A stretch of 64,000 bases of DNA from an uncultured cyanobacterium (GCA_963803805.1 CAWDOD010000003.1:160001-224000); one strand, 5' to 3'; counted from the first letter of the stretch, positions 2,401 through 45,031 are shown. Numbers and translations: made by a program. Notes: a model not told the origin generated them from the letters alone.

Positions 2401-2550
2401 TACCTTCAGCATTCATATAGCTATCTAAGCCCTGTATATGAGAATACTCTTGTAGCAAAAATACATAGCTAGTAATCCCAAATATATATCCTGTTAAGCT
2501 TAAGATCAAAAGTTATAATAACTATTGCTCAGCAACTCCCACTCAGAATC

Positions 2551-3580: not shown

Positions 3581-4592
3581 ACGTGAGTTCGATGAAGTTA
3601 AAAAACAGCAGAAGGAAGTTCAGCTAGGCCTTTGGGGTCAAGGTCAAGGGAAGGCTTTTTGGGCAAGAAAGTATAAGCGATTAGACCAGCTAAGAGATTA
3701 ACCAAAAAATTCCAAACGCTACGGTGTCTTGAATGCTGAATCTGACAGATATTCTTGAGCTGGTCATTAACAGTCTCAATCAGAGAACGCTTACGTAGGA
3801 GAATCTTATCCTGAAGACGCATTAACTTCGGCTTCATATTTTTCTTGCGGTGTGTAATCAGTTGTAGTCTTTGTTCATAGAGTTTCTCAAACAAATCCTG
3901 AGAAATATAACCTCGGTCGCCAAATAACTTACCAATCAAGCCATCAGCCATATCTGGCACAGGGTTACGGTCATCAGTATTACCCTCTGTAAGTTTGAAA
4001 GCAAGCAGCTCACCTTTGTCATTAATAATTAGATGTAGCTTGAAGCCATAATGCCATCCCATAGCATTTTTGCCCCAACCTACCAAACCTTCAAAAACAC
4101 GGTGGCTTTTGGAGCGATTCGGGTGGCAGACCTCAATGGGGGTAGAATCAATAAAGCTGATGCCGGTAATTTCTCCTCGAAGAGTATGTAGAAAACAGCA
4201 AAGAAGCATTAAGCTCCACGGCATTAGCTCTACGAATCGAGTGTAACTGACCAAGTTGGGAAAAGCTTTCTTCCAGTAAGGCAAGACTTGTAGAGTGTAA
4301 AATTCTTTAAAAGTGCGAAATCCCGAACCATGAAAGGCAATGACAATGGTCATCACTTCGCTTAGGCTTAGGCGGGAGCGACATAGACGCTCTCCACAAG
4401 TTGCTGTTAACATTGGCTGTTGTTGCCAATGCCTCTCAAACCTTTGATAAAAGTCATCTACCTGACAGAATATTTGGGTGATATCGAGACGAGATACAAT
4501 ATTGGACATAGCATCAGATTCTGATTAAGATTCATTTTCAGCATACCTCTGATGCTTTTCTTTTCTCTCTTTTTCCTCCGTCGAACTCACGT
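3581..4592 (-). mobile_element. IS982-family insertion sequence
   Basis: 12-bp terminal inverted repeats ACGTGAGTTCGA (3581-3592) and TCGAACTCACGT (4581-4592). 6-bp target duplication TGATAC (3575-3580, 4593-4598). Confidence 0.92.
3598..4509 (-). CDS. IS982 family DDE transposase
   Basis: IDSTPI, GWHYGFKLHL, GDRGY, R..IETVNDQLK motifs. Confidence 0.95.
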   Translation of the reverse strand: MSNIVSRLDITQIFCQVDDFYQRFERHWQQQPMLTATCGERLCRSRLSLSEVMTIVIAFHGSGFRTFKEFYTLQVLPYWKKAFPNLVSYTRFVELMPWSLMLLCCFLHTLRGEITGISFIDSTPIEVCHPNRSKSHRVFEGLVGWGKNAMGWHYGFKLHLIINDKGELLAFKLTEGNTDDRNPVPDMADGLIGKLFGDRGYISQDLFEKLYEQRLQLITHRKKNMKPKLMRLQDKILLRKRSLIETVNDQLKNICQIQHSRHRSVWNFLVNLLAGLIAYTFLPKKPSLDLDPKGLAELPSAVF

Positions 4593-4884
4593 TGATACAG
4601 CAAATGACCTAACTCTGTCATCATGTAGGCATCTTGGAAAGTGTGTACGCCACACTCACTAATTCCTTGAGGATAAACATTACACCACCAATCTACTGAA
4701 GAATTTTCTTCTGTGTGATGAACACTCACTTGACAATCAAATTTGCGTCCGTCTGGTAGCAGCAAATCTAATCCTGTAAAGTGTTTAGCGAGCGCTTCTG
4801 CTTGTGGCTCAGAGTTACATTCAACACAAAGACTAAATAACCAACCCATATATTTTAGAATCGATATTTGACTATACCCAGCTT

Positions 4885-5487
4885 TCACGAAGTTTCATAG
4901 CGTATCCAGTGACGGCTGATAGCTTTATCCAACTCTCCGAAAGGATATTCTTCTTCATAAGACTCCTTTAAGGCTAACAAGAAGGTCAGAACTGCCTTTC
5001 CTTCTTCAGGGGTCAAACTTTCGAAGCGCTCATGAAACGCGGCTAGTGACTCACCAGAGTCGAACGATTCTAATGCCTGTTTCCTGTTCAGTTCCAGAAT
5101 ATCATCCGGGAGACCGGGAGAACACTGAGCAAGATAGTTATAGCTTTCTACTATATCATTGCGAGATAGCTTGGTAAGTATATCTATCAGTGCATCTACA
5201 AAAATACGGACGGAGTAGAATGATTTTAGGGAATAGTAGAGGAAAGCAGGTAAAAAATATAGCAATGCCTCCGGAGTCAGCGCTACAATATCACCTCCTA
5301 TTTCATAACGCATCTCCTGAGCAGTAAGTTCTATGGGGGTTATCGTAGCTAGAAACTGACCCAATTTTTTATATTCGTACTGCACTAGGGGTTCTGGTGC
5401 TAATATCTGAGTAGCTAGGGGTCGAGGGCGTGAGGCAAAGGCATTAAAGAAATATGCTTTCAGGTCTTTGTCAGGAGGTATTTGCAT
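4885..5487 (-). CDS. Hypothetical protein (DUF6714-like); candidate immunity protein for the adjacent Ntox16-like tip
   Basis: AF..RPRP and LTPEALLYFLPAFL motifs; begins 16 bp after the DUF4157 gene on the same strand. Confidence 0.55.
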   Translation of the reverse strand: MQIPPDKDLKAYFFNAFASRPRPLATQILAPEPLVQYEYKKLGQFLATITPIELTAQEMRYEIGGDIVALTPEALLYFLPAFLYYSLKSFYSVRIFVDALIDILTKLSRNDIVESYNYLAQCSPGLPDDILELNRKQALESFDSGESLAAFHERFESLTPEEGKAVLTFLLALKESYEEEYPFGELDKAISRHWIRYETS

Positions 5488-5503
5488 ATCATCGCGAGAT
5501 TAT

Positions 5504-6826
5504 CTAGTGTGCTTGTTGAATTTGCTTCCGGATTGACTCAAGCGCCACTATCACTGCTGCAATCCCTGCTGATATAGCACCAACTGCAACCACGGCTTGA
5601 ATGGCTTTCCCAAGTGCAATAATTGCAATAATAAGTCCAACTATTGCAGCAATAGTTAATCCTGCTTCGATGAGCTGCCGAGAGCGTTCGACCACTTCCT
5701 GCATAGCTCCGACTAATTCTTGTGGACATTTATACTTGTCGAAGTTCCTATAGCAACGCATCATGTTGTTGTTTAGTTGTGTTATGTGCTCACGATGTTT
5801 TCTATTACCGCCCCTAAAGCATTTAGTCATTATCACAGTCCGTGCTGAAAGTTCTGCTGCAATAGCAGCTATCTTAGTTGCTAGAGTTGGGCAGTCGTCC
5901 TTATTACTGCATCCACCAAGTTGACCTTTGACTTTTTTAGTTGCCTCTACTGCTGCCCGCAAAGCCTTATATTCCAGATCACTACAGTCTCCTGGAGGCT
6001 TCATACCATCACCAGGATAAAGTTGTACTAATTGACTTACCGCCATCTCGGTGTTTGTTTTTTTACTTTGAATATTTGTATTGCTGCGCTCATTAATAGA
6101 CTGTTGTTGAATGCCTGGTGCAGATCCTTGTTGCACCACATGGGTCAACTCATGGGCAACCAACTTCTGCCCCTCAAGACTCCCAGGATTATACTCGCCT
6201 TGCTTAAAAAAGATATCCTGCCCCGTAGCAAACGCCCGTGAATGCAAAGAGCGATTTAACTGATTAGCATTACCATCAGTATGTACCTTCACCCCACTAA
6301 AATCTGCTCCAAAAACCCGCTCCATCGGCTTCTTAATCTTCTCAGATAGCCCCTGACCACTACCCCTTGCTCCTTGGATACTTTGCTCCACACCAGGGTC
6401 AACTCCTCCCCCAGCAACTCCACCATGACGCATCACCGTTGGTTTAACTACTGGTTCTACTTTTGTTTGTACTGATTCATTAAAGCCAGGAGAATTAATC
6501 TGTTTAACCACCTTTGCTGCTGTGGCATCAGCTTCCTGTTCATACTTATCCCCTGGTTCCCCTACCGTTAACTTAGTTTGTACCTCTAAGTTTTCTTCTT
6601 TCTCCTGACCTTCACAAGCATCACACTTAGTTTGAATAGAATTACTCAAATAACTTTTACCTACCTCAGAAGCAATTGGCCGCTGCCAACCTGCCGTTTC
6701 TTCGGTACTCTGCCATCTGCCCGTTGCTGGTTGAATACCAACCGTAGGTGGTTTAAAGGAGGAAGATGGGGGGGAATGACTGGGAGGAGTCCAGTGAGAA
6801 GACTTGCTGGTGTGGGTTTTACTCAT
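5504..6826 (-). CDS. DUF4157 (eCIS-core) protein with Ntox16-like toxin domain and hydrophobic tail
   Basis: IQTKCDAC, QTKLTVGEPGDKYEQEAD, FGADFSGVKVH, RAFATGQDIFF and HELTHVVQQ; C-terminal PPGDC...C...C...AR..I..KCFRGGNRKH...C. Confidence 0.85.
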   Translation of the reverse strand: MSKTHTSKSSHWTPPSHSPPSSSFKPPTVGIQPATGRWQSTEETAGWQRPIASEVGKSYLSNSIQTKCDACEGQEKEENLEVQTKLTVGEPGDKYEQEADATAAKVVKQINSPGFNESVQTKVEPVVKPTVMRHGGVAGGGVDPGVEQSIQGARGSGQGLSEKIKKPMERVFGADFSGVKVHTDGNANQLNRSLHSRAFATGQDIFFKQGEYNPGSLEGQKLVAHELTHVVQQGSAPGIQQQSINERSNTNIQSKKTNTEMAVSQLVQLYPGDGMKPPGDCSDLEYKALRAAVEATKKVKGQLGGCSNKDDCPTLATKIAAIAAELSARTVIMTKCFRGGNRKHREHITQLNNNMMRCYRNFDKYKCPQELVGAMQEVVERSRQLIEAGLTIAAIVGLIIAIIALGKAIQAVVAVGAISAGIAAVIVALESIRKQIQQAH

Positions 6827-6968
6827 AAAACCTCTGGGAATGTAGGAGAAAAAGTATAACTTTTTGTTGCTTTTAAGGTTATCTAATTTCTTTTAAGCTA
6901 ATACTTTGACTAAATATATCTTAACGTCAGTATTCATAGGGAACTAAAACTTTTGGGAGAGAAAAGTA

Positions 6969-8963
6969 ATGGCTATAATTGCAACTCCTGATCAGAATGA
7001 AATTAACTCAAATAACCTCATCACTGCCTTAACTCCTATTTACCAGGACTTAATCAACTATGCTCAACGTCAACAACAGCAAGAAGTTGAGGAAAAACCA
7101 ATTGATGTTATCTCAGAATTAGAAGCGATCGCATCTTCTCTCCCTCACTTAGAAAAGCTTTGTCAAACCTTCACCCTTTCTACCTTTGAGCGTAACATCC
7201 TCTTACTCTGTCTTTGTCGAGTAGTTTTTCCCGATGCTCCTTACTGGTTAACCCAAGCCCAAGGTAATCCCCGTGCAGATTATCCTACTCTGGGTTTGGC
7301 TTTGCAACTATGGCAAGATAACCATTGGAGCGCTGTAACTCCCACATCTTCTTTACGTCGCTGGCAACTGCTATTAGTTGACACTAACCAAGAAGATATT
7401 ACCCTGGCTCCCTTAAAAGTTGATGAAACTATTCTGCACTATTTAATGGAGGAAGATTACTATGATGCACAACTAGCCCGTTTCCTCAAGCCTTCAACTA
7501 TTCAAAGTTCTCAACTCCCTACATCTCACCAACAAATAGCTACTAATCTTATCAACATTTGGTCACCTTCATCTACCTACAATACAGTACCAATTGTGCA
7601 GTTATGTGGCCATTCACTAACTACCTGTGAAGAAATTGCGATTGCAGCCTGTCAGGAAAATAATTATCCCCTCTACTACCTTTCTGCTTCTCGACTACCT
7701 AACAACCCCGATGAATTATCATTTTTGCTGCAACGCTGGCATCGGCAAGTCAAGTTAATTGGTGGTGTGTTGTTGTTGGATTGTCATAACCTTCATCACA
7801 CAGACATGGTTAGGGAAGAAGCTATCTCTCGGTTAGTGGAAGATATAGAAACCCCCTTAATAATTTGCAGTGAGAAAAGGAAAAGTTGGCCCAGGCGGGA
7901 GGCGATCGCCTTTGACATACCTCAATTAACTCACGAAGAACAACTGGCACTGTGGCAAACTAATTTAGGTGAAGCAACCTCTCAACTGAATGGTACTGTA
8001 GAATCCCTGGTAACTAACTTTAGCCTCAGTAGTACAAAGATTAAAACTGCTTGTTTAACCACAACGGAACAGCAACAGCAAACTCCCTTAGCAGAACAAC
8101 TTTGGCACTTTTGTCGCACCCAAGCCCGTCCCCAATTAGATGATTTAGCACAACGGGTAGAAAGCCAAGCTACCTGGGAAGATTTGATCCTGCCGGAAAA
8201 AACAAAGAGTCTGTTGCAGGAATTAGCCAGCCAGGTACGCCAAAGGGCAAAGGTTTACCAAAAGTGGGGTTTAGCTAAACGTAGTGTTAGGGGTTTGGGA
8301 GTGAGTACCTTGTTTGCTGGGGAGAGTGGTACAGGTAAAACCCTGGCGGCTGAGGTTTTGGCGAACGAGTTTAAATTGGATCTCTATCGCATTGATTTAA
8401 GTAGGGTTGTAAGTAAGTATATTGGCGAGACGGAGAAAAACTTAGAGCGTATTTTTAGCGCAGCCGAAGGAGGGGGAGTAGTTTTGCTTTTTGACGAAGC
8501 GGATGCTCTTTTCGGCAAACGCACCCAGGTTAAAGATAGTCATGATCGCCATGCTAATGTAGAAGTTAGTTTCTTGCTACAACGGATGGAAGCATATCAA
8601 GGTTTAGCGATTTTAACCACAAACCTCAAAGAATCCCTCGACCAAGCTTTTCTGCGCCGTCTCCGTTTTATTGTTTCTTTTCCCTTTCCCGATGCTGATA
8701 GTAGAAGCAAAATCTGGCAACGGATGTATCCTCAACAAACCCCAACTAAAGGATTGAACTATGAAAGCTTAGGTCAACTATCGGTAACTGGGGGCAGCAT
8801 CCGCAACATTGCCCTTAATGCAGCTTTTCTCGCGGCTGAAGCTCAAGAGGCGGTGATGATGAAGCATATTTTGATAGCAACTAAGGCTGAGGCAATGAAA
8901 ATTGAAAAAATCCTCACTGATCGTGAAATTGCTGGTTGGATAACTGAAAGTTATGATTTTTAA
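6969..8963 (+). CDS. AAA+ ATPase of the Afp15/Pvc15-like (eCIS-associated) family
   Basis: Walker A GESGTGKT, Walker B LLFDEAD, SKYIGETEKNL, VKDSHDRHAN; N-terminal F.LS.FER..LLL and L..WQLL region. Confidence 0.85.
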   Translation: MAIIATPDQNEINSNNLITALTPIYQDLINYAQRQQQQEVEEKPIDVISELEAIASSLPHLEKLCQTFTLSTFERNILLLCLCRVVFPDAPYWLTQAQGNPRADYPTLGLALQLWQDNHWSAVTPTSSLRRWQLLLVDTNQEDITLAPLKVDETILHYLMEEDYYDAQLARFLKPSTIQSSQLPTSHQQIATNLINIWSPSSTYNTVPIVQLCGHSLTTCEEIAIAACQENNYPLYYLSASRLPNNPDELSFLLQRWHRQVKLIGGVLLLDCHNLHHTDMVREEAISRLVEDIETPLIICSEKRKSWPRREAIAFDIPQLTHEEQLALWQTNLGEATSQLNGTVESLVTNFSLSSTKIKTACLTTTEQQQQTPLAEQLWHFCRTQARPQLDDLAQRVESQATWEDLILPEKTKSLLQELASQVRQRAKVYQKWGLAKRSVRGLGVSTLFAGESGTGKTLAAEVLANEFKLDLYRIDLSRVVSKYIGETEKNLERIFSAAEGGGVVLLFDEADALFGKRTQVKDSHDRHANVEVSFLLQRMEAYQGLAILTTNLKESLDQAFLRRLRFIVSFPFPDADSRSKIWQRMYPQQTPTKGLNYESLGQLSVTGGSIRNIALNAAFLAAEAQEAVMMKHILIATKAEAMKIEKILTDREIAGWITESYDF

Positions 8964-15935: not shown

Positions 15936-16346
15936 TTACGTTTGCACCATCTTAGTTGACAAACCTGCCCAATCTCCGGAAGGAAGTTTACCTAAAATGT
16001 AAACATCAATTTCAGTTTCACCAACAAGATAAACCTGGAGGTTTTGAAGATTATCCTGGAGGGTAGAAACCAAATCTTGATACTGCTTCACCGTTTCTTT
16101 TTCCGAGGTATTGTGCCAATCTTTCTCTGTAGTTGCTTGTTGAAAAAACTTCTCAAATTCTACAGTTTTAATGGATACATTCTCTTGTTTAGCTATCTTT
16201 TCTAAAATAACTATCTCGTTGATTTCTGATAAATCTTCTTGAGAGTAAGTAAATACTTCAAAGGGATAATCTGATTCACTTATCCAAAGAAGATCAGTAG
16301 TTGCGAGACGTAATTTCTGGAGAATATCTAAATTAGTTTTGTCCAT
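15936..16346 (-). CDS. nuiA: Nuclease A inhibitor family protein
   Basis: LLW.SESDYPFE, VYLVGE.EIDVYILG, GLST..V.T. Confidence 0.88.
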   Translation of the reverse strand: MDKTNLDILQKLRLATTDLLWISESDYPFEVFTYSQEDLSEINEIVILEKIAKQENVSIKTVEFEKFFQQATTEKDWHNTSEKETVKQYQDLVSTLQDNLQNLQVYLVGETEIDVYILGKLPSGDWAGLSTKMVQT

Positions 16347-32675: not shown

Positions 32676-33109
32676 TAGGCAATGGAAAGGAGGGAAATAA
32701 CATAAGTGCAGTTTAACTAAATTCGACTTAGATATTAAATCTATTTAATTTACATAACTTCAACTGAAAATTTGTCAAGTCCTAAAAAGGTTCTCAAACG
32801 ACGCATTTATGTGATTTAATGGAATAATCGAAAAATCATACTGCTACCCCTATATCTAAAACCAAAAGCCAATCTCTACAAGCTAGATAAAGCGTTAATT
32901 AAATGGCTATTTTCCCTCAAAACCATAGTTAAAGAAAGTGCTAGGTCTAACAAATTTTGAGGGGATTTTCAAAGTTTTTTTGACAAAAATCGCTTTTTAA
33001 AGTAAGCGACACAGGAATTTGTAACAAAGAAATCAAAAACCTCATCATAAGTTTAAAGTTGTGATCACAACGTTGTTATATCATTTATCATTAAACATTT
33101 TTATAGCTC

Positions 33110-33419: not shown

Positions 33420-34727
<1,308 letters not shown>

Positions 34728-34747
34728 TATTGGTCATTAATTAAAAG

Positions 34748-34776
34748 AAGAGACGTTCAAAGCGAACGTCTCTTTT
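34748..34776 (+). terminator. Hairpin / intrinsic terminator after ahcY
   Basis: AAGAGACGTTC-AAAGC-GAACGTCTCTT followed by TT. Confidence 0.65.
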
Positions 34777-34892
34777 CAGTTTCTTCAGTTTCTTCAATGT
34801 TATTTCTAAGAAGCTTTCTTCTTCTTTAAACAAGTCTATTGAGGTTATTACAAGAAGCTCTTCTTGCTTCACATACCCAATTAATATAATTT

Positions 34893-35405
34893 TTAGCTCA
34901 AATCAAATCTAACTTCTAGAAGCTGCTCTCTATGATACTTTGTTACATACATCTCTTTAAAACCCGGCTCATCATAAAGTTTTTTATTAATGTCAAAATG
35001 TTGATAATCTCCTTTAATAGATACACATTCAGTCCAAGGAACATTATAATAACAGGCATCTTTCTGAGATAAAGGAGTATCACTATAGAAAATACTGTTG
35101 TAATTATATTTCCAATGAATTAAAGTCTTGATCAAAATACAATATCGTCCATCAGCAGTATGGAGAGCTAAGACAGTTCCTCTTTGGGAAAGATAGCGAA
35201 ATCTTTTCGGTAATTCTAATTCTAAAGCAGTATTTGAAGGTATATTCTGGTTTTTTGCCCAATCAAGTATAGCTGGACATATCTTTAGGCAAATACATTG
35301 TCTAAATTTAGATATAACTACTAATGGCGACCAGAAAAGTAGATGAAAGATACACAGAATCGCTAAACCTATACCGGTTATTAAATTATCTAATAATTTA
35401 CTCAA
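34893..35405 (-). CDS. Hypothetical membrane-anchored protein; last gene of the toxin/immunity array
   Basis: N-terminal hydrophobic segment; paralog of 35503-37003 (PAILDW..LELPKRFRY.SQRGTVLAL..DG.YC). Confidence 0.7.
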   Translation of the reverse strand: MSKLLDNLITGIGLAILCIFHLLFWSPLVVISKFRQCICLKICPAILDWAKNQNIPSNTALELELPKRFRYLSQRGTVLALHTADGRYCILIKTLIHWKYNYNSIFYSDTPLSQKDACYYNVPWTECVSIKGDYQHFDINKKLYDEPGFKEMYVTKYHREQLLEVRFDLS

Positions 35406-35553
35406 TTTAGATAGAACGATATTTGATAAACAAGTGGTCTAATCAGACATGGTAGCTCTTTCAGCGCTTTTGTGCATTCTAGGTTTAGTAGAACCGCAAT
35501 TTTTAATTTAGAGAATAGCAAACTTCAAACAATTGTTGATTGTAACTCTGTTT

Positions 35554-36731
35554 CAGAAGTGTTGCGCGAGGGGGTGTTCAGTCTAAAAATAGACACACTA
35601 CACCTATGATCAAGAAAATACCTTTATATGAACACTAGCTTTTTAAACCAGTGAACATAGCTGATATGTTCACTCATAAAAGCCTGTAAATAGCGAAGCT
35701 TATCTAATAGTTTATTGCCAAACTCTTGAGGTATTTTCACCAAAGCTAGTAACACATAACCAATCAAGCAACTGTATATTTGGATTTCAATTCCATTAGT
35801 GTTTTTAGTTATTAATTTGTCTAGTTTTAAGTGCATCTTAAGGAATTTCCAGAACAATTCTATTTGCCATCTTAAACGGTACAATTCTCCAATTTCTTGG
35901 TTACTCATTTCCTCCTCTCCTTTTTCTGGCAAGTTAGTTGCTAGTCGAAATTCTGTTCTACTTTCTAAGTCGCAAAATATTACTACTCTTACTTCTACTT
36001 GCTCTTTTCCTTTACCCAATATGTAATTGCCATTCTCTAGCATTTGAATGCTTATGTTTTTCTTTATTCTTAATAGGAAATATTTATTGGTTTCACTCAA
36101 TAGTGACCTGATTCTTGACAATCCTGAAAACCCTCTATCCATTAGGCTAACTCCGTTTTCAGGATTAGACTCTATTGTATAGTCTCCATACTTGCTGTCA
36201 TGACCTTGACCAAAGTGTATCAGTATTCCTTCTGGGGAGGATGTTAATAAGTTCAGACCACTAAATAATTTAACTTGTTTTAATCCTTGCTTTGTTAGTA
36301 ACTTACTTGTCAATGTCACTATGGTTGAATCTAAAGGAAACAAAGCTAACCTTCTGTTGTCTATTTTTTTACTCTTGTTTAACTGTTTTCTCAGTTTTTT
36401 AAACAGATTGTAAAACAACATTGGGTCTCGTTTTTTACTCGCTCTGGAGAATGTTGATTTATCTACTGTTATGCCACGAATATTCAGGGTTTTGAATACA
36501 GAAGTCATGCTTACTTGCCCTTGGTCTAATACGAAACTTAGCCAGGTTGATACAAATAAAAATGTATTTAGTACTGGATAATCGTCTTTGGGTAAGTCTC
36601 CCAGGTACTTTTTGACTATTTTTGGGAAGTTTGATACCATCTACTTAACTTTATTATTTATTTTAATCGCCTCCATTTTACCAATTTGTAGGCTCTTTTT
36701 TACTTTTATTTGCTATCACTCAACGCTTCTG
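35554..36731 (-). mobile_element. IS4-family insertion sequence
   Basis: Terminal inverted repeats CAGAAGTGTTG (35554-35564) and CAACGCTTCTG (36721-36731); no target duplication. Confidence 0.82.
35624..36640 (-). CDS. IS4 family DDE transposase
   Basis: LDST, MDRGF, ATNL, Y..RWQIE.F.K.LK. Confidence 0.93.
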   Translation of the reverse strand: MVSNFPKIVKKYLGDLPKDDYPVLNTFLFVSTWLSFVLDQGQVSMTSVFKTLNIRGITVDKSTFSRASKKRDPMLFYNLFKKLRKQLNKSKKIDNRRLALFPLDSTIVTLTSKLLTKQGLKQVKLFSGLNLLTSSPEGILIHFGQGHDSKYGDYTIESNPENGVSLMDRGFSGLSRIRSLLSETNKYFLLRIKKNISIQMLENGNYILGKGKEQVEVRVVIFCDLESRTEFRLATNLPEKGEEEMSNQEIGELYRLRWQIELFWKFLKMHLKLDKLITKNTNGIEIQIYSCLIGYVLLALVKIPQEFGNKLLDKLRYLQAFMSEHISYVHWFKKLVFI

Positions 36732-37102
36732 AAGACACAGTATTGACCATCATCAGAATTTAAAGCTAAGACAGTACCTCTTTGGGAAATATAGCGAAAT
36801 CTTTTGGGTAATTCTAGCTCCCTAATAATACTAGAATGTGTATTTTGACTCTTTACCCAATCAAGAATTGCTGGAGCATTTTTCAGAGAGACAAATCGTC
36901 TAAATTGATAAATAAGCCAGAATGGTAACCAAAGGGGTGAAGTTAAGAAAGCTATGCTTGATCCCAACACGTTAGTTGTAAATTTGTTCAATTTAGTTGT
37001 CACTCCACATCTTAGTCTGCTACTGCAAATCTAAAAATAACTAACTGTTCTTCAATTTATTTATCTGCTCTATAATATCTGCGATCGCACTAAATTTAGC
37101 TT

Positions 37103-37429
37103 TTAAAGTAGTGGCTCAAATGAACTGTAGGCTTTATAGTTTCGGAAATGCCGAGTATATAAGTCTGTTTCATCTTCAAACTCATCGTACAAGGTTGGAT
37201 TCACATCAACAACCTGCTTCAAAGACCAAGTAATAGTTTCTCCATATTCATTCTGAAATTTCCCTTCCTCTTTCTTCGCGTAAGCTAAGGTTTTCTCCTG
37301 AGCTTCTTCTAGAGAGCTAGCTTTGATTAAGGTAAAACATTCTTGGTACAAAGGCTTGTAATCTAGTTTGTTAGAGTGAGATTCATAAAGAATTAAGGCA
37401 ACATAAAAAGACTGAGTTGAATCTTCCAT
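37103..37429 (-). CDS. DUF4288-like protein (candidate orphan immunity protein)
   Basis: Y.A.ILY, Y.E...LIKA.S.EEA.EK, N.YGETITW pattern. Confidence 0.7.
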   Translation of the reverse strand: MEDSTQSFYVALILYESHSNKLDYKPLYQECFTLIKASSLEEAQEKTLAYAKKEEGKFQNEYGETITWSLKQVVDVNPTLYDEFEDETDLYTRHFRNYKAYSSFEPLL

Positions 37430-37504
37430 TAACTTTACCTCTAAAACTATTTCAGAAATTTACCATCATTCAAAAGTTTCTAGGCTCTTTTATTGTTATA
37501 TGAT

Positions 37505-37864
37505 TCAGTCGTCAACTAAACTGATTTTAGCTAGAGCTTTAGCACCCTTTACTAAAGACTTGCCCCAAGTAAAATTGTAAGGTAATCCGGGGGTTACTGA
37601 TAATAGCATGGAGATGGGAGGGACTATATATTCCACAACTTCTGGATAGGAAATAACAAAAATATTCAGGAAACCTAAACGTTCTAAATAGGTTTTCAAC
37701 TCTTGCCGAGAATTATCTTCTTCTTGCCTGGGAGCATAGATTTGTTCTCTACCAATTACAGAATAATACTGCTCCCAAAGTTCCCTTATTTTTTCTTGAA
37801 CAGCTATATTCCCTAAATAAAACTCCGGGGGAGAAGCAGACTTAGGATCGAAGCCGAGAATCAA
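37505..37864 (-). CDS. Hypothetical protein or gene fragment
   Basis: 119-aa ORF with TTG start, co-oriented within the array; no motif recognised. Confidence 0.35.
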   Translation of the reverse strand: MILGFDPKSASPPEFYLGNIAVQEKIRELWEQYYSVIGREQIYAPRQEEDNSRQELKTYLERLGFLNIFVISYPEVVEYIVPPISMLLSVTPGLPYNFTWGKSLVKGAKALAKISLVDD

Positions 37865-37888
37865 TCACAATTTGCTCACCCTACAATA

Positions 37889-38056
37889 CTAAAATCTACG
37901 AGGGAACTTAGCGTCCTCACACTCATTAATTTCTTCATTCCAACGACCTCCTCGATCTAAACAACTATCCACAGCTAAAAAATTTCTTGCCCAAGGAAGA
38001 AATAGATATCCTAATAGAAATACGGTGATAATTCCCACTATGATCTTAAGTTTCAT
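37889..38056 (-). CDS. Small single-TM protein (55 aa); candidate immunity protein for the SAA-like tip
   Basis: ATG at 38056, 5 bp after the toxin stop: MKLKIIVGIITVFLLGYLFLPW...DSCLDRGGRWNEEINEC. Confidence 0.7.
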   Translation of the reverse strand: MKLKIIVGIITVFLLGYLFLPWARNFLAVDSCLDRGGRWNEEINECEDAKFPRRF

Positions 38057-38061
38057 GATGC

Positions 38062-39018
38062 TCAATATCGATTTGGTAAACCTTCGGGACGGAATTGTTG
38101 ACACATATCTGGACATGATCCGTCAGGATTATATGCACCAGATATTCGACCGCTATTATTTGCGATTTGATCTTGCTGGCTTGCTTCAGCTGGATCTCCT
38201 TTAATCTGGTCAAAAATCTCCCTTGAATTGCTTAACCACTCAGCCATCTGTGCGCCATAAGGACCGAGTTGAGCTGCTTCACAATTTGCCTTGCAGTGAA
38301 AATAGGCATCGCCACCAATCCAATTTGCCTCACGCATATCGTTATAGTTTCGCCAAAAAATACTGATAGCTGCTCCTTCCTGGAAAGCTCGTGCAGCTTG
38401 ATCTAAACTTGGTCCCAAAACTGGATTTTGGGGTATGAGTATTTGAGAAAGTATTCGTGATTGATCAGATGAGTTGTTCGTAGATAGTGGGTCTAATTCA
38501 TCTGAAAGTTGGCTATTATTATCAGTAGCTTGTTGGAATTGCGAACCTTCTAATTTTTCCCTATCAGAAACTTCTGCTTTAGCTTGAACTTGTAAAGAAC
38601 TCCTCTGAGCATAATTTCGCAACAAATGCTGAACAGATTCCCCAGCAGCCACCTTAGCTCCCACCGCATCAGCCTCCACCTCATACTTATCCCCCACCTT
38701 ACCCATTTCTCCCGCAAGTTGCACCTTACCAGATTGTTGCTGTACAACATGAGTTCCTTCATGGGCTGATAACTCCACACTAGGAGGCTTTTGAAAAGCA
38801 ATCTTATTCCCCATCGTATAAGCCTGGGCCCCCAACTGCTTACTCGCTGCTGCTGCGGGGCCACCGATATAAGCTTGGACATGGGACAAATCTTGTCCAA
38901 AAGACCTTTGAATTCTATCTAAATGAGGTAATGGTACAGGGGAACCGGTAAAACCTGTAGCAGCAATCTGGGATGGAGAGTGATTAGTTTCTTCTCCTCC
39001 ACATTTGGCACATTTAGC
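38062..39018 (-). pseudogene. DUF4157 core plus serum-amyloid-A-like tip; 5' region degenerate
   Basis: HEGTHVVQQ core; tip FWRNYNDMREANWIGGDAYFH...DQIANNSGR...FRPEGLPNRY; in-frame TAA at 39019-39021 in I*AKCAKC. Confidence 0.8.
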
Positions 39019-39195
39019 TTATATAGCAGTCACCACGATTGTTAGGACATTTTTCTGTTGCCTATTGCCTTGAAAGCAAGATTTAATGTCATAACCGATA
39101 TGTCCGTTGCTATACCTTCAAACTAGCAGGCATCTTTCCCAGGTTGCCCTTTCTTTAACTAGCTGCTGTTGGGGGGATAAGCTTTGTTGAGTAGC

Positions 39196-39378
39196 TTAAT
39201 TGCTTTGGAGTTTTCGTCGAAACGTAACCGATGGTATAAAGTGCAAAATTTTTTCTTCCATTAAATCTGGGTCATCGTGAAACTCAAATCTGTTTCCCAA
39301 TGCCCAACATCCAGATGTAGGAATAACTAGCAGGATGCCTAAGATAGTAGACCAAAGCAGTTGTTGGTTACTTTTCAT
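39196..39378 (-). pseudogene. Truncated paralog of the lipoprotein-like immunity family
   Basis: IPTSGCWALGNRFEFHDDPDLMEE; similarity is lost after about residue 50. Confidence 0.75.
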
Positions 39379-39395
39379 CTTGATTAATCTGCTTT

Positions 39396-39815
39396 TCAGA
39401 GTCCAGTCAAGCCTACGTTTACAGAAATAAATGTTACCTCTCTATTCTCGTCATATACTATCGAAGGTTGCCATCTTATTTGTCTTAAAACTCCTACCAT
39501 TTTCCTGCGATCGCAAGATAAAAAATCTACTCCTCTATAAAGAGTCTGCTTACCACCAGGAAAGTTAGGATCTTCTCTCATATTAGAAAAAATACCATTC
39601 TCAATATACTCGCATTTGAAACCATTACTCTCCATAATTCTTTTAGCTCTGTCGATAGAGCTACCCACTGGTATAAGCTGCGAAATTTCTTCTTCCATTA
39701 AATCTGGGTCATCATGAAACTTAAATCTGTTTCCTAACGCCCAACATCCAGATGTAGGAATAATTAGTACGAGACCTAAGATAGTCAAAGAGATCAGTTG
39801 TTGGTTAATTTTCAT
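39396..39815 (-). CDS. Putative lipoprotein, candidate immunity protein (copy A)
   Basis: Signal peptide with TSGC; FHDDPDLMEEEI..IPVGS.I..AK.IME.NGF.C; near-identical to 41871-42290. Confidence 0.8.
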   Translation of the reverse strand: MKINQQLISLTILGLVLIIPTSGCWALGNRFKFHDDPDLMEEEISQLIPVGSSIDRAKRIMESNGFKCEYIENGIFSNMREDPNFPGGKQTLYRGVDFLSCDRRKMVGVLRQIRWQPSIVYDENREVTFISVNVGLTGL

Positions 39816-40434
39816 CTTGATTCAGCTCATTGGGTAGTTCTATACTGCCTAGTACTTTAGGCGAAAGCGGGTCTGTGTTAATTTGAGCTAGTTGTTGAGG
39901 ATCGTTTTCTGAAGTCTTCTGGTTTTCTAAAGCCTGCTCATTGCCTAAAGATTTCTTTTGTAACTTCTTAAAAGTTCCTGCTTTAGCTTGAACTTGCGAA
40001 GAACTCCTACGAATATAATTCTGAAGTAAAGGCTGAACAGATTCCCTAGCAGCCACCACCTCATACTTATCCCCAACCTTACCCATCTCCCCCGCAAGTT
40101 GCACCTTACCAGATTGTTGCTGTATTACATGGGTTCCTTCATGGGCTGACAACTCCACACTGGGAGGCTTTTGGAACGCAATCTTATTCCCCATCGTATA
40201 AGCCTGGGCCCCCAACTGCTTACTCGCTGCTGCTGCGGGGCCACCGATATAAGCTTGGACATGGGATAAATCTTGTCCAAATGACCTTTGAATTTTGTCT
40301 AAATGGGGTAATGGTACAGGGGAACCAGTAAAACCTCTAGCGGCAATCTGGGTAGGAGAATGACTTACTTCTTCTCCTCCACACGTAGCTTGTACCTTTA
40401 AAGTGGAAGAAATAAGTAAAAAACTAAAGACCAA
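39805..40434 (-). pseudogene. Orphan DUF4157 cassette with the toxin domain deleted
   Basis: HEGTHVIQQ core; lacks EADAVGAK (24 bp); the linker matches 42850-42937 and then jumps to sequence matching the 3' end at 42302. Confidence 0.8.
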
Positions 40435-40834
40435 CTAGTCCTGTTGAAACAAAAACACTCTCAACACTTTCGTCTTGATGCTCAATAACAACTTGCCATC
40501 TTCTTGAGACAACCAACGCTTTACTGAGTAATGGTTTACTAAAGTCACAATACAAAAAATCTACGTTGAAGCGTAGATTTTCTTCTGTGGTTCCATGGGT
40601 TTCATTTTCCATATATTCACAGGTGAAACCATTTTGCTCCATTACTTCCTTAGCATCAGCAATAGGACTACCAATAGAAATATAGCTGAGAATTTCTTCT
40701 TTCATTAAGTCGGGATCTTCATGAAACTTAATTTTGTTTGCCACTAATTTGCTTGCAATACTCAAAGTAATAGATAAGATAATTCCTACTAGGAGTAAAA
40801 ATAGGAACTTTGGTAATTTCTGATGTGAGTTCAT
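40424..40834 (-). CDS. Membrane-anchored paralog of the immunity family
   Basis: KFHEDPDLMKEEI..ISIGSPI.DAK.VME.NGF.C...VDFLYCD...W; begins 10 bp after the toxin stop. Confidence 0.8.
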   Translation of the reverse strand: MNSHQKLPKFLFLLLVGIILSITLSIASKLVANKIKFHEDPDLMKEEILSYISIGSPIADAKEVMEQNGFTCEYMENETHGTTEENLRFNVDFLYCDFSKPLLSKALVVSRRWQVVIEHQDESVESVFVSTGLVGL

Positions 40835-40844
40835 TATTCACAGC

Positions 40845-41862
40845 CTAAATTTTTGTTTTCCAACCCGGTGCATATACAGGAGGTTCATGTTCTCCTAAAC
40901 CTGCATCTCGTATACCTTGATGAGCTACAGAGTTACTGTTAGGCCCCAGTGGAAAATAACGAACCTTTTTTGCTTCAATCCTACGCATTGAGCTTGCTAG
41001 CTTTTCCCTGTATCTGTCGCAGGCTTGAAGATCTAAGTTAGCTGCTGTCTTGATTCTACCACTGGGATTTGTCGTCCAATCTAGACCGCGAGGAACATAT
41101 GGACGAGATGTAGTAACTATATATCCCCAATGACCCTGATCCGTTTCACTAGAGTTGCTTGAATCTGTACCGCTTGAATCACTAATACTACCACCCGTAC
41201 TACCAGAGCTACCAGCAGTGTCAGTATTAGGTCCACCGCGAAAAAGTGTTTCTCTTGCAGATTTGATAGGTTTACCTTGCTCATTTACGGTAACTGGATC
41301 TGAAACGACAATAAATCCATGATGACCTATTCCTAAATCTACTCCGTAATAGCGAAGCTCAACTTTACCTGGCCGAGTAGAAGATTTGGCAAGTTGTATT
41401 GCTACGGTTGGATCGCTTTCTACTTTAGCTACATCTTGTCCTAATGACTGTTGAACTGTATCCAAATGAGGCAATTGTGTTGAAAAGCTAGTAAAACCAG
41501 TTGTAGCAATAGACGAAGAACTTCTATGAGAATACTTTTGCAACAAAGGCTGAACAGATTCCCCAGCAGCCACTTTAGCCCCCACCGCATCAGCCTCCAC
41601 CTCATACTTATCCCCAACCTTACCCATTTCCCCCGCAAGTTGCACCTTACCGGATTGTTGCTGTACTACATGGGTTCCTTCATGGGCTGATAACTCCACA
41701 CTGGGTGGCTTTTGAAAAGCAATCTTATTCCCCATCGTATAGGCTTGGGCCCCCAACTGCTTACTCGCTGCTGCGGCTGGGCCACCGATATAAGCTTGGA
41801 CATGGGACAAATCTTGTCCAAAAGACCTTTGAATTCTATCTAAATGGGGTAATGGTACAGGG
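40845..41862 (-). CDS. 5'-truncated (orphan) DUF4157 cassette with an intact His...GPNSNS permuted-papain-like tip
   Basis: HEGTHVVQQ; tip HHGFIVV, FRGGP, DWTTNPS, Y.PLGPNSNS, PP..APGW. The core begins abruptly 8 bp after the upstream stop codon. Confidence 0.75.
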
Positions 41863-41870
41863 GCTGCTTT

Positions 41871-42290
41871 TCAGAGTCCAGTTAAGCCTACGTTTACAGA
41901 AATAAATGTTACCTCTCTATTCTCGTCATATACTATTGCTGCTAGCCATTTTACTTCTCTTAAAACTGCTACCATTTTGCTGCGATCACAAGATAAAAAA
42001 TCTACTCCTCTATAAAGAGTATGCTTACCACCAGGAAAGTTAGGATCTTCTCTTACCCTAGAAAAAGTATCATTCTCAATATATTCACATTTGAAACCAT
42101 TACTCTCCATAATTCTTTTAGCTCTGTCGATAGAGCTACCCACTGGTATAAGCTGCGAAATTTCTTCTTCCATTAAATCTGGGTCATCATGAAACTTAAA
42201 TCTGTTTCCTAACGCCCAACATCCAGATGTAGGAATAATTAGTACGAGACCTAAGATAGTCAAAGAGATCAGTTGTTGGTTAATTTTCAT
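41871..42290 (-). CDS. Putative lipoprotein, candidate immunity protein (copy B)
   Basis: Near-identical to 39396-39815. Confidence 0.8.
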   Translation of the reverse strand: MKINQQLISLTILGLVLIIPTSGCWALGNRFKFHDDPDLMEEEISQLIPVGSSIDRAKRIMESNGFKCEYIENDTFSRVREDPNFPGGKHTLYRGVDFLSCDRSKMVAVLREVKWLAAIVYDENREVTFISVNVGLTGL

Positions 42291-42301
42291 CTTGATTCAG
42301 C

Positions 42302-42937
42302 TCATCGGGTAGAACAATTTAGACCTTCTTTTTTTGTACCGATAGCTGCAACTTGTGGGGTCAAATTGGTTTCAGAAGCTTGTGTTTTTACTTTGAAGGG
42401 ATTTACTTCCCAACAAGGAGCAAGTACTGGCGGCTTTCCAGGATTAAATCCTAATTGTTTTACCGCGTAATATACTGTGGAATTGCTATTAGCTCCATCA
42501 AAACACTGTTCTGAATCAGGCATACGGTACTTAATTCTAGCCGCTTCAATATTGTCCATAATTTCCCTTAATTTAGAGTCATAGTTATTAAAAGCACCAA
42601 TTGACTTAAATTTTTGCAGTTCTACTACCGCACTAGGATTTGTTGTCCAATCAACAGTCCTCTCTGTATACCGACCATATTGTGTAACGATTTATCCATA
42701 CATAAATCCTGAAAGACCGCCACGATAGAAATTTGTAGGACCGTAAAAACCAGTTAGATAAGAAGGTTCACGAAGAATGATAAAGGCATGGTGTGCTGGA
42801 GTCGTAGCTGTTCCTACTGGTTTGAAATGTATTTCCAAACTACCTGGTACTTTAGGCGAAAGCGGCCCCGTGTCAATTTGAGCTAGTTGTTGAGGATCGT
42901 TTTCTGAAGTCTTCTGGTTTTCTAAAGCCTGCTCATT
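42302..42937 (-). pseudogene. Toxin tip paralogous to the 40845 tip; 5'-deleted, with one in-frame TAA at 42692-42694
   Basis: HHAFIIL, FYRGG, YG*IVT..DWTTNPS, GANSNS, PPVLAPCW; the two listed ORFs share one frame. Confidence 0.8.
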
Positions 42938-42942
42938 CTTGG

Positions 42943-44322
42943 ATCGCAACTCAACAACTAGGCTTTTCTTTACTCACTATTCCTGCCCATCTGCTACCCC
43001 AAGAAACCGCCGCACTACAACAATTCTGCCAACGTTTAGAAAGACAAACTATTTTGGGACGTAGCTTAGTTTTCCTTGATTGTCGTCAAATACTAGAAAG
43101 TGATGGTTTAGCAGAGAAGTTCTTTTCTCAACTAATTGAACAACTGCCTACTCCATTCCTCATTAACTCCCCTCAGCCCAAACAACTTTCCCAACCTTGC
43201 CTGATTCTGGAAGTTAACCCTCCCACTAAAGGAGAACAATTGCAACTTTGGCAAACTGCCTTGGGAGATGTGGCTACAAATTTAGAAACAGAATTAGCAT
43301 CCTTGGCCTATCAATATCACCTAGACCTCCCCACTATCCAAACCATCTGCGCCCAAACTCTCACTGAACTAGATTCAAACAATGCTCCTACAGAATTACT
43401 CCCCAGCCTCCGACAAAACTGCCACCATTTAGTTCGTCCCGCTTTACAAGGACTCGCCCAACACATCGAAACCAAAGCAGATTGGGAAGACTTAATCTTG
43501 CCGGAAAAAGAGAAAAATACTCTTGAAGAGATTGTCGCCCAAGTTACCTACCGCAAAACTGTTAGTGCAGACTGGGGTTGGGCAGGAAAGGGACAACGGG
43601 GACAAGCTATGGTGGCAGTATTTGCTGGGGTAAGTGGTACAGGGAAAACTATGGCAGCCGAGTTAATAGGTAAAAGGACAGGATTAGATGTTTATCGTAT
43701 TGATTTAGCTGCTGTAGTGAGTAAGTACATTGGGGAAACGGAAAAGCATTTGGGTCAAATCTTTGATGGCGCAGAAAGGGGAGGAGCTATTTTACTTTTT
43801 GATGAAGGGGATGCTCTTTTTGGTAAGCGTACTGAAGTCAAGGATAGCCGCGATCGCTATGCGAATTTGAGTGTCAGTTATTTGTTACAACGTTTGGAGG
43901 CTTATGGTGGCTTGGCTATTATTACCACCAACTGGGAAGAATCTTTAGATCAGGCTTTTAAGCGACGTTTTCGCCACATTGTTAAGTTCCCCATGCCAGA
44001 CAAAGAAACCAGGAAGTTACTTTGGCAAAGGATTTTTCCCAAAGCTACCCCAATCCATCAATTGAATTTTACAGAGTTAGCAAAAATGCACATTAGCGGT
44101 GGTAATATTCGCTCTATAGCTCTGAATGCTTGCTTCCTCGCTGCTAAAATGGGGCAGCCAGTAACTATGAAGCAAGTTGCGATCACCGCTCGTGAAGAGT
44201 ACGTGAAGTTAGATTTGGGGAATATGGATAACTTTACCCAAGGTTGGTTAAAAGAAGCTAAAGAAGCTGAGTTGAAGACTTTGATGTCTCAGTCATTACC
44301 AAACATTCAGACAACAAGATAA
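42943..44322 (+). pseudogene. Second Afp15/Pvc15-like AAA+ ATPase, 5'-truncated
   Basis: GVSGTGKT, LLFDEGD, SKYIGETEK. The frame extends upstream of 43054 (IATQQLGFSLLTIPAHLLP), aligns with about residue 225 of the 6969 ATPase and has no ATG. Confidence 0.8.
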
Positions 44323-44398
44323 AAAGCCTAACTCTACTACTTAGATTCGTCTCTTCCTCAAACCCATTGGAGGAATCCTCGAATTACTTTCGTGTTAA

Positions 44399-45031
44399 CT
44401 ATTCTTTTACCAAAACTCCATGTAAAAAAATATCTGCAATACCTTCGGCCATTTCCTGCATGGCTTGGGGAGAAGCGTCGGGATTAATGATGGTATTTTC
44501 AGAAAACCCGGCGATCGCAAACATACCCAAAAATACTTGAGCAACAATTTTAGGATTAGTGCGGCGATAGATGCCGCGATCCATAGCAGTTTGGAAAAAC
44601 ACTTCCGCCACATCCGTCATCTTTTCAATCACCTCCGATTGAATCCTTTCTTGCAATTCGGGGTGAAACTGGGCTTCTGTAAAGCAAACACGCATCATAT
44701 CGCTATTTTCCTTCATACGAAACATACGCCGTCGCATTACTTGGGCTATGGCTTTGTAACTACCCATTTCACTTAATTCTGTTAGTAAGTCAGTGAGAAT
44801 TTCTACCCAACCCATGGTCACCACTTCAATTAAAATTGCTTTTTTGTTAGCAAAATGACGAAACAGAGTCCCTTCTGCCACCTTTGCACCTGTAGCTAAA
44901 TCTTTAGTAGTTGTGCCGTCGTAACCTTGACGAGCAAATAAATGTAAGGCAGCTTTTAAGATGCGGCTGCGGGTATTTTCTTCTGGATTACTGGTTACTT
45001 GTCCGACGGAACGCTGACTAAAAACTCGCAT
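44399..45031 (-). CDS. TetR/AcrR family regulator
   Basis: RILKAA..LF...GY..TT...LA..A.V.EGTLFRHF..K. Confidence 0.93.
   Translation of the reverse strand: MRVFSQRSVGQVTSNPEENTRSRILKAALHLFARQGYDGTTTKDLATGAKVAEGTLFRHFANKKAILIEVVTMGWVEILTDLLTELSEMGSYKAIAQVMRRRMFRMKENSDMMRVCFTEAQFHPELQERIQSEVIEKMTDVAEVFFQTAMDRGIYRRTNPKIVAQVFLGMFAIAGFSENTIINPDASPQAMQEMAEGIADIFLHGVLVKE

Follow-up and report, generated by a model that had tools for sequence, protein, structure and literature searches.

The DNA analysed here is a stretch of minus-strand genes at 34893-42973 of a 64-kb window (the whole stretch of DNA under analysis) from an uncultured cyanobacterium, G000 (assembly 5.3 Mb, 97.4% complete). It carries three copies of the eCIS_core domain (PF13699, formerly DUF4157), a marker of toxins delivered by contractile injection systems (CIS), and the locus is probably an eroding satellite effector/immunity island of such a system, which is by now mainly an immunity island. 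For comparison, the genome of a sister species (G001, the only other species of the genus compared, with the homologous locus at a non-syntenic place) and two public sediment-metagenome runs (X1 and X2) were used. Contigs of the source genome G000 are denoted C2, C4, C8 and C9.

In the open reading frame (ORF) map, all genes at 34893-42973 were placed on the minus strand. Core copies 1, 2 and 3 were located in direct orientation at 38574-39003, 39978-40383 and 41514-41863 by self-BLASTN of 34000-45000 and a repeat search. In the self-BLASTN comparison, the core of copy 2 was 85.6% identical to that of copy 1 over 430 columns, and the core of copy 3 was 94.3% identical to it over 348 nt. All three cores match positions 2-78 of the eCIS_core profile with 60-61 bits (cut-off 22) and keep the sequence HEGTHV(V/I)QQQ, i.e. 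the HExxHxxQ signature. No further copy of the core DNA beyond these three was found by BLASTN in the 5.3-Mb assembly, and a profile search gave nine eCIS_core matches overall in the genome. The ratio of nonsynonymous to synonymous divergence (dN/dS) of the cores was 0.09-0.15 between the copies, at a synonymous divergence (dS) of 0.22-0.28, and 0.03-0.07 against G001. Since the core differences are mostly synonymous, the copies diverged as working coding genes. A G-D-K-Y-E-x-E-A-D motif follows the HExxH region in the subfamily of the array (window 38595-38700 and 41516-41620); the canonical cyanobacterial DUF4157 proteins compared (the C8 genes described below and loci L037-L041) have a similar motif some 100 residues ahead of the core.

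None of the three copies has an N-terminal loading domain upstream of its core. The open frame upstream of the core comprises 27, 39 and 4 codons in copies 1, 2 and 3, respectively, without any ATG. In copies 1 and 3, GTG and TTG are missing there as well, and translation could begin at the earliest 17 residues into the domain (profile position 19). In copy 2, a TTG (40434) directly follows the stop codon, with an 11-nt overlap with the end of the gene immB. By comparison, the full-length gene at 5504-6826 of the same window has its ATG 159 codons upstream of the core. These results bear out and refine a preliminary description of this DNA, which had reported three highly similar DUF4157 cores at about 38620-39000, 40030-40383 and 41540-41862, none with an intact N-terminus comparable to the gene at 5504-6826. 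According to the same description, their tips are SAA-like, deleted and of the His/NSNS type, and a small gene for an envelope protein stands behind each copy; this arrangement was recovered as well (Pfam SAA match, 516-bp deletion and tip-family alignment for the tips; ORF 37889-38116, lipoA' and immB for the envelope genes).

Each unit of the array is damaged in its own way. Copy 1 (38062-39018), in which eCIS_core and the SAA tip share a 318-codon open frame, is preceded by a decayed remnant of the N-terminal loading domain (39019-39198), recognised by alignment to the full-length genes of G001 and by tblastn of the G001 N-terminal domain. The remnant holds three in-frame stops (TAA 39198, TGA 39120 and TAA 39021), a 1-nt gap and a 95-nt insert (39020-39114) found nowhere else in the genome; this uniqueness ruled out a miniature inverted-repeat transposable element. 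Fused to the remnant is the 5' fragment (39378-39196, about 50 codons) of a third lipoprotein-type gene, which is 87% identical to the 5' ends of both intact 139-aa immunity-family genes and was matched by tblastn over residues 1-49. Copy 2 (39805-40434; Pfam E 3.8e-16, joints defined by BLASTN and alignment) consists of core and linker only and leads directly into lipoA'. According to the alignment with G001, its break leaves just the final 5 N-terminal-domain codons, which now adjoin the 3' end of immB, and a 24-nt in-frame deletion has removed 8 residues just after HExxH, in the region of the core's last helix. Self-BLASTN matched 39389-39837 to 41864-42312 at 95.1% and 39834-39942 to 42829-42937 at 91.7%, and from this two-part match to lipoA and unit A it follows that a 516-bp segment carrying the tip (the equivalent of 42313-42828) was deleted, with 4 nt shared at the joint. 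Copy 3 (40845-41870), identified by Pfam, tip family and structure model, joins core, a second pre-core remnant and tip B in a 341-codon open frame. It is broken inside the pre-core region, 4 codons before the profile match and 7 nt past the stop of lipoA, and the degenerate second pre-core segment (about 41415-41525) lies between core and tip B; lipoA and copy 3 are in the same frame with one TGA between them. Unit A (42302-42973; defined by its frame and the tip-family alignment) retains a linker remnant and tip A without core, N-terminal domain or start, and its frame is interrupted solely by an in-frame TAA at 42692-42694 within tip A. No two 5' break points coincide, and they have the look of illegitimate deletions.

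The upstream end of the array abuts an Afp15/Pvc15-like AAA+ ATPase gene (42947-44322, plus strand; paralog alignment and Pfam), which has also lost its 5' part. Its ORF runs divergently from the array from a TTG at 43054 to 44322 (422 aa), and the plus-strand frame is open upstream of 43054. The product aligns to residues 267-663 of an intact 664-aa paralog (6969-8963) with 47% identity; it lacks about 260 N-terminal residues including the winged helix, and Pfam detects AAA only, versus winged-helix domain (WHD) and AAA in the paralog. Homology to the toxin linker ends at 42937 and AAA homology to G001 begins at 42947, so that truncated unit A and the truncated AAA+ gene meet head to head across 9 nt (42938-42946). 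Since the two breaks abut, neither the 5' part of the ATPase gene nor the region between the genes nor the neighbouring effector's head is present any more. A 1,074-nt segment comprising linker, tip A and lipoA (41864-42937) fits exactly between both break points, and a single replacement event may have beheaded both the ATPase gene and copy 3.

Altogether, at least seven lesions were counted, versus three intact immunity-family genes (immB, lipoA and lipoA'): the replacement that beheaded the ATPase gene and copy 3, the nonsense codon of tip A, the loss of the N-terminal domain of copy 2, its 516-bp tip deletion, its 24-nt core deletion, the fusion of the immunity-gene fragment to the remnant of copy 1, and the stops and insert in that remnant. 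One more truncation, associated with an insertion sequence (IS), lies further downstream (36716-37003). lipoA and lipoA' are 95.1% identical in nucleotides and 91% in amino acids (dS 0.08), so the duplication appears young. Given this young duplication and the still-open frames of copies 1 and 3, the truncations would be recent relative to the duplications.

A full-length gene sharing the core was not found upstream of the cassettes, where the upstream-most unit is unit A, nor anywhere else in the assembly by BLASTN of the core. An intact N-terminal domain of the subfamily was likewise absent from the assembly in tblastn and BLASTN searches, which detected only the remnants at copies 1 and 2. 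With no core or N-terminal domain elsewhere, cassette recombination cannot yield an expressible toxin in G000.

The tip of copy 1 matches Pfam SAA with E 4.7e-25 and 88.4 bits (cut-off 30.8) and has the sNxxGR motif as ANNSGR; it was therefore assigned to the prok-SAA lipocone family. In the part of the lipocone study considered here (PMC12419801), sNxxGR is the active-site motif of this family, prok-SAA domains are already known as tips of polymorphic toxins, with lipid head groups outside the cytoplasm as their predicted target, and the immunity proteins of lipocone toxins are all transmembrane proteins or lipoproteins. The next gene after copy 1 (ORF 37889-38116) encodes a small single-pass membrane protein with two Cys, which by its position is a candidate immunity protein for the prok-SAA tip. 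Its start is probably the ATG at 38056, internal to the ORF and 6 nt past the toxin stop, which would give a protein of 55 aa. The 75-aa product of the whole ORF has no match in Pfam or NCBIfam.

Tip B of copy 3 has no Pfam or NCBIfam match, and Foldseek against the PDB gave none below E 0.001 (best E 0.24). A word-indexed search found a family of 18 proteins at E<=1e-3 among 780 candidates, including a homolog in G001, a 495-aa DUF4157 protein attributed to Coleofasciculus and proteins named RHS repeat-associated. The near-invariant residues are H50, R77-G-G-P80, D130, Y171, N177-S-N179 and P201. The family (window 40848-41468) is unnamed; its motifs read H...RGGP...DW...NSNS, often with a Ser/Gly-rich disordered loop, and it also occurs as short secreted proteins in Novosphingobium, Sphingomonas, Polyangiaceae and Pseudovibrio. 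According to the family alignment, tip A is a diverged member, with a weak hint of DUF3750 (E 0.16). An AlphaFold2 model of tip B (predicted local distance difference test, pLDDT, 81.7; predicted TM-score, pTM, 0.73) was compared with 48,161 chains by VIA-align. The top match was TseH (6v98) with Z 9.2 and a root-mean-square deviation of 3.9 over 126 aligned residues, which is only modestly above the Z values of 7-8 that are common for unmatched models. It was followed by CLN5 (6r99, 7.0), the DUF862 deSUMOylase DeSI (2wp7, 6.9, with 19% identity), Aichivirus 2A (6.6) and PLAAT4 (7zot, 6.5), with a Bacillus 'cysteine peptidase' and YiiX at lower ranks; sequence identity to the fold matches was 7-19%. 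We take all of these to be members of the permuted papain-like NlpC/P60-LRAT-PPPDE assemblage. The tip B model places H50 on a strand and S178 at the start of helix 178-188. The N-terminus of this core helix, where the catalytic Cys would be expected, is occupied by N177-S178-N179, with no conserved Cys there. The model thus suggests a Ser-His variant of the permuted papain-like fold with Ser at the Cys position.

The genes immB (40424-40834, 136 aa, signal-anchored), lipoA (41871-42290, 139 aa, following tip A), its duplicate lipoA' (39396-39815, 139 aa) and a gene of G001 form one family, as found by ORF, family search and family alignment, with a signal anchor or a lipobox-like TSGC and two conserved Cys. 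Among 1.84 billion representatives, 903 were matched by a profile search at E<=1e-3, of which 374 reached E<=1e-10. No credible Pfam family was found among 61 members, two of which weakly match one unrelated family each, and NCBIfam likewise gave nothing for the family. immB is 62% identical in amino acids to the G001 gene at the equivalent position. When tip B (25-207) and immB (32-136) were modelled together, the complex scored 0.77 (runs 0.77, 0.73 and 0.78) and the best control 0.06; the runs share at least 79% of their contacts and the partner pLDDT was 88. The mark for this score was reached by 116 of 157 solved complexes and by 2 of 215 mismatched pairs, which are rough counts made with our own alignments. 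The modelled interface includes H50, G79-P80, N177-S178-N179 and P201, and the model supports the view that immB binds tip B and covers its predicted active site. At six tip-family loci of other genera, a hidden Markov model of the immunity family matched the gene directly downstream strongly in one case (Coleofasciculus). At four others the next gene encodes a secreted protein of 127-142 aa, and these were the best sub-threshold matches among 386 ORFs (E 0.013-0.44), which suggests that they are distantly homologous to the immunity family. The units of the array have the make-up of toxin-tip/immunity cassettes, i.e. they are 5'-truncated, keep the core, and bear a variable tip and an adjacent putative immunity gene. 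For tip B, the complex model and the downstream gene conserved in G001 and Coleofasciculus support this assignment.

Intact counterparts were found in the sister species, together with the variation of tips among relatives that the preliminary description had predicted. In G001 the ATPase gene is 88% identical in nucleotides, frameshifted, and has a TnpB-type gene upstream. Two toxin genes of this genome both begin with ATG. The one of 309 aa (L013 11173-12102) has an N-terminal domain of about 75 aa and the start of the core fused to tip B, without the HExxH part, and is followed by the immB homolog. This toxin is a natural effector of the class without the metallopeptidase part. The other, of 440 aa, consists of N-terminal domain, core and a different tip with a weak match to Tlde1_dom (E 2e-4, below the cut-off). 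Over the two genomes, the same core (87-94% nucleotide identity) bears four tips, namely two His/NSNS versions, prok-SAA and the weakly Tlde1-like one, and the point of core/tip divergence is common to all, shortly after ...SVQPLL and about 25 residues past HExxH. The fusion of N-terminal domain and tip B in G001 has the appearance of a crossover product of the two pre-core segments still present in copy 3. The evidence for tip exchange at the core is historical, and ongoing switching is outside its reach.

These facts are best accounted for by the following history. An ATPase gene of the Afp15/Pvc15/Alg15 loading type would have stood divergently from tandem effector genes, each encoding a disordered N-terminal loading domain, the eCIS_core (DUF4157, HExxH) and a variable envelope-acting tip, and each followed by an envelope-anchored immunity gene. 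Tips would have been exchanged by recombination within the DNA of the N-terminal domain and core, which is ordinary polymorphic-toxin evolution. Different deletions then stripped start codon and loading domain from every effector copy. In one rearrangement, a copy of linker, tip A and immunity gene A would have taken the place of three stretches, namely the 5' end of the ATPase gene, the region with the promoter and the next effector's head. Such toxins would have no normal start of translation and could not be loaded into the CIS. What is left would probably serve mainly as orphan immunity genes that protect against co-occurring relatives whose toxins are intact, and the headless cassettes would be pseudogenes of recent origin, with a gene lost from G000 as the only one to which they could donate tips.

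Several points weigh against this interpretation. The frames of copies 1 and 3 are uninterrupted over 318 and 341 codons, and the conserved residues of tip B and the sNxxGR motif of SAA are all kept, which would also fit cassettes under intermittent selection. The dN/dS of lipoA against lipoA' is 0.59, a value derived from 21 changes only. An acceptor gene could lie in the unassembled 2.6% of the genome or be transferred from relatives with a core of about 90% identity. Since headless, promoterless genes are also what Rhs and CDI orphans consist of, erosion and a silent store differ here only by the missing acceptor. Furthermore, the AAA+ gene of G001 is broken while its toxins are intact, and local loss of the ATPase therefore need not disable the effectors. 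The immunity role itself is predicted from the complex model, gene position and family conservation. Finally, the survey of other cyanobacteria described below took 34 cores from the best 150 matches and left out 73 weaker ones.

The preliminary description had read the locus by analogy with Rhs, contact-dependent inhibition (CDI) and Maf loci as a functional store of silent cassettes, in which a stored tip becomes joined, through recombination at the core repeat, to an N-terminal-domain gene that is expressed. Part of this analogy holds, since headless units of core, tip and immunity gene do exist and the same core bears four tips. The repeats are direct, 350-430 bp long and 85-94% identical; copies 1 and 3 have intact frames and conserved tip motifs; the four tips in two species diverge at a fixed point; the G001 fusion resembles a crossover of the two pre-core segments of copy 3; and the core dN/dS of 0.09-0.15 is that of coding sequence. 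However, neither an acceptor nor an intact N-terminal domain is present in the assembly, and the unit in the position of a 'main gene' was beheaded along with the ATPase gene. The break points and lesions are heterogeneous, tip A has a nonsense codon and copy 2 no tip, and the toxin genes of G001 and of other arrays are full-length. Among sampled genomes of the order, 63 of 151 have the DUF4157 domain, and tandem arrays are common. In 10 such arrays (9 genomes), all 24 cores have at least 84 open codons upstream and an ATG at least 76 codons upstream. Ten further cores were chosen for their short frames; seven have an ATG at least 100 codons upstream, two have shortened or ambiguous heads and one is a bare core fragment of 80 residues. 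The upstream frame is open for at least 84 codons in 33 of the 34 surveyed cores, and none of the 34 is a headless core-tip unit, either behind a full-length gene or elsewhere. A functional silent store is therefore unlikely, although it deserves serious consideration, and the locus provides no evidence for a working cassette-switching mechanism.

A wider version of the same idea can be proposed only tentatively, and we regard it as improbable: the eCIS_core segment could act as a recombination handle at the level of the population, with headless cassettes and their immunity genes kept as a reservoir and re-armed by the N-terminal-domain gene of a relative whose core is about 90% identical, such as the co-occurring sister species. 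If true, no cassette switching would have been described before for any contractile injection system, nor for cyanobacteria.

Expression of the headless copies from internal or coupled starts such as TTG 40434, followed by action without the CIS after lysis or as intracellular zincin-like proteins, is very unlikely. The long open frames, the TTG of copy 2 directly after a stop with its 11-nt overlap, and the single TGA that splits lipoA and copy 3 would agree with it, and apparently complete genes with only N-terminal domain and core occur elsewhere, so that the core itself may be functional. However, none of ATG, GTG or TTG precedes the core in copies 1 and 3, and envelope-acting tips without signal peptide or loading domain would have no exit route. 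A promoter and terminator scan of 34800-43200 gave 19 and 6 sites, respectively, versus 21.3 and 5.5 expected from shuffled sequence; sites are no more numerous than in shuffled sequence, and the scan was uninformative. Stop-codon recoding or readthrough, considered for unit A, the copy 1 remnant and the lipoA/copy 3 pair, was rejected as the stops mix TAA and TGA.

The odd joints were also checked for origin in the assembly. Run X1 contains 62% of the sampled words, and contigs of an independent assembler bridge 38991-39315, 39647-39942, 40265-41152 and 42908-43076 without a mismatch. The main joints, covered by these exact contigs, are therefore not products of the deposited assembly, and assembly artefacts, which had been named in the preliminary description as a possible refutation, were not borne out. 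This independence is one of assembler and not of sample, as X1 may be the source sample. The joint 41863/41864 is not among the listed contig pieces, and no run contig matched 42216-42767, where the nonsense codon of tip A is known from the deposited assembly alone. Loose ends in X1 and X2 (at 42942 and 42947) reveal a G001-like relative with an intact N-terminal domain and a longer AAA gene. An artefact in which G000 was collapsed with such a co-occurring relative is hardly credible: the genome appears metagenome-derived, sediment metagenomes are the only runs found with its DNA, the same runs contain G001-like variants and one interval has no run contig, but exact contigs bridge four joints including the 516-bp deletion and the head-to-head junction, the window copies differ from G001 by about 10% throughout and form no mosaic with it, and the contig is 668 kb long.

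The eroding island can be placed among known systems as follows. It has been reported in the part of the 2012 account considered here (Zhang et al., PMC3482391) that Photorhabdus virulence cassette (PVC)-type polymorphic toxins have a 'PVC-metallopeptidase' core with the HExxHxxQ signature and occur in cyanobacteria, among others. The toxin class has therefore already been characterised in silico, and the supposition in the preliminary description that it was uncharacterised does not hold for the class. The DUF4157 domain was later made a marker of extracellular contractile injection system (eCIS) toxins (Geller et al. 2021, PMC8213781). In a haloarchaeon, DUF4157 proteins were reported to be secreted in a CIS-dependent manner and neutralised by downstream partners (PMC11566945). 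In AlgoCIS, according to the portion of the preprint considered, the N-terminal domain is required for loading by an AAA+ protein and DUF4157 is dispensable (bioRxiv 10.64898/2026.05.27.728243). For the Anabaena CIS (tCIS), the part of the source considered names only two DUF4157 candidates, Alr3311 and Alr3312, with unknown targets (PMC8894136). In the literature searched, with supplements outside its scope, DUF4157 cassettes that are orphan or headless and paired with immunity genes were not described. The toxin class has been known since 2012, and archaeal toxin/immunity pairs have been shown experimentally.

The array shares with PVC/eCIS toxins the HExxHxxQ core, variable C-terminal tips, a downstream immunity gene and a genome with a CIS and Afp15-like ATPases, and the architecture in G001 is canonical. 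Unlike them, the array copies have neither loading domain nor start, and the linked ATPase gene is truncated. Like the orphans of Rhs, CDI (cdiA-CT/cdiI) and MafB loci, the cassettes are 5'-truncated, keep a piece of core, lie in direct orientation with an immunity gene behind, and have a fixed core/tip boundary; members of the tip B family are also found on RHS proteins. However, in those systems a full-length main gene is present, whereas the array has none upstream or anywhere in the genome. The recombination handle is a zincin-like domain here, and Rhs/YD repeats or a VENN/FHA region there, and the route of the array toxins is a phage-tail-like injector that needs an N-terminal loading signal. 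A third parallel is offered by poly-immunity loci, for example those next to type VI secretion system (T6SS) Rhs effectors, as far as covered by the part of the preprint considered (bioRxiv 10.64898/2026.07.13.738213). Intact immunity genes of one family, two of them near-duplicates, likewise stand beside disabled toxins, and relatives in the same habitat bear the matching intact toxin. In contrast to those loci, the predicted immunity family is unnamed and the toxin remnants are still long and open.

The model of tip B resembles TseH (a Vibrio cholerae T6SS effector), PPPDE/DeSI, PLAAT/LRAT and CLN5 in having a conserved His on a strand and a conserved small residue at the helix N-terminus, but differs from them in that its predicted nucleophile position is Ser (NSNS) and not Cys. 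TseH has a periplasmic immunity partner, and tip B is similarly paired with an envelope protein.

The effectors of cyanobacterial CIS are almost unstudied. The locus and its counterpart in G001 suggest that they evolve as classical polymorphic toxins, with swappable tips on the same core, and envelope-acting tips with envelope immunity proteins point to use by bacteria against bacteria. They also suggest that a lineage can disarm and yet keep its immunity genes. As by-products, a papain-like toxin family with Ser for Cys was proposed on DUF4157 and RHS carriers, together with an unnamed envelope family of 903 clusters predicted to sit over its active site.

The genome encodes the machinery to which such an island could be satellite, i.e. 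a CIS and Afp15/Pvc15-like AAA+ ATPases. Its CIS genes are dispersed: sheath and three tube genes lie at 292-295 kb of C2, with Pvc16_N and a GerE-type regulator just beyond, and gp25 and Baseplate_J genes are on C4. Afp15-like ATPase genes were found at five loci of G000, of which two look intact by ORF (6969-8963, with WHD and AAA, and one on C9, judged by ORF only). A second, apparently intact effector module lies in the same window at 3598-8963. It comprises an eCIS_core and Ntox16 gene (5504-6826), the divergent gene for the 664-aa WHD and AAA ATPase (6969-8963), a weak DUF6714 match downstream (4885-5487) and a DDE transposase (3598-4509). A paralogous module at 204-211 kb of C2 contains a transposase whose Pfam scores are the same, an eCIS_core protein of 857 aa, and an IS630-type transposase between toxin and ATPase; the last 70 residues of this ATPase are in another frame. 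At 141480-146009 of C8 there is a tandem pair of eCIS_core genes with near-identical N-terminal domains and an ATG on both, with a core fragment upstream. The pair consists of a 590-aa toxin, followed by a gene for a 198-aa lipoprotein-like protein, and a 273-aa gene that stops directly behind the core and so has no tip. The same tip-less make-up of N-terminal domain and core was also seen in other genomes (L014, L015 and L037-L040).

The island as a whole extends over 34828-44395 (9.6 kb). Homology to the flanking DNA of G001 stops at 34827, and the island sits at a synteny break, with its flanks (34827 and 44396) on different G001 contigs; an empty site is therefore undefinable. Its distal part (34828-38000) has a G+C content of 0.33-0.36, versus about 0.41 across the window. 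The genes of this part are all on the minus strand. The first (34893-35405) encodes a 170-aa predicted membrane protein without Pfam or NCBIfam family and is 48-51% identical to its 95-aa, 3'-truncated paralog at 36716-37003 (repeat D4, 73%), which by tblastn covers residues 1-91 of 170 only. The cut of this paralog adjoins a DDE transposase gene (35624-36640; PF01609 DDE_Tnp_1, E 1.9e-22), so that an IS, IS4-like in our own reading, occupies the spot where the paralog breaks off. At higher coordinates lie genes for a DUF4288 protein of 108 aa (37103-37429; PF14119, E 1.6e-24) and for a 119-aa protein known from its ORF (37505-37864), which has no Pfam or NCBIfam family above threshold.

Elsewhere in the window, and unrelated to the array, a homolog of the nuclease inhibitor NuiA and two Uma2-family endonuclease genes were found (15936-16346 and 1789-3210). 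A repeat of about 300 bp at about 32680-33010, just upstream of an SAH-hydrolase gene, has 13 more matches of 71-83% across G001 and may be a small mobile or repetitive element.

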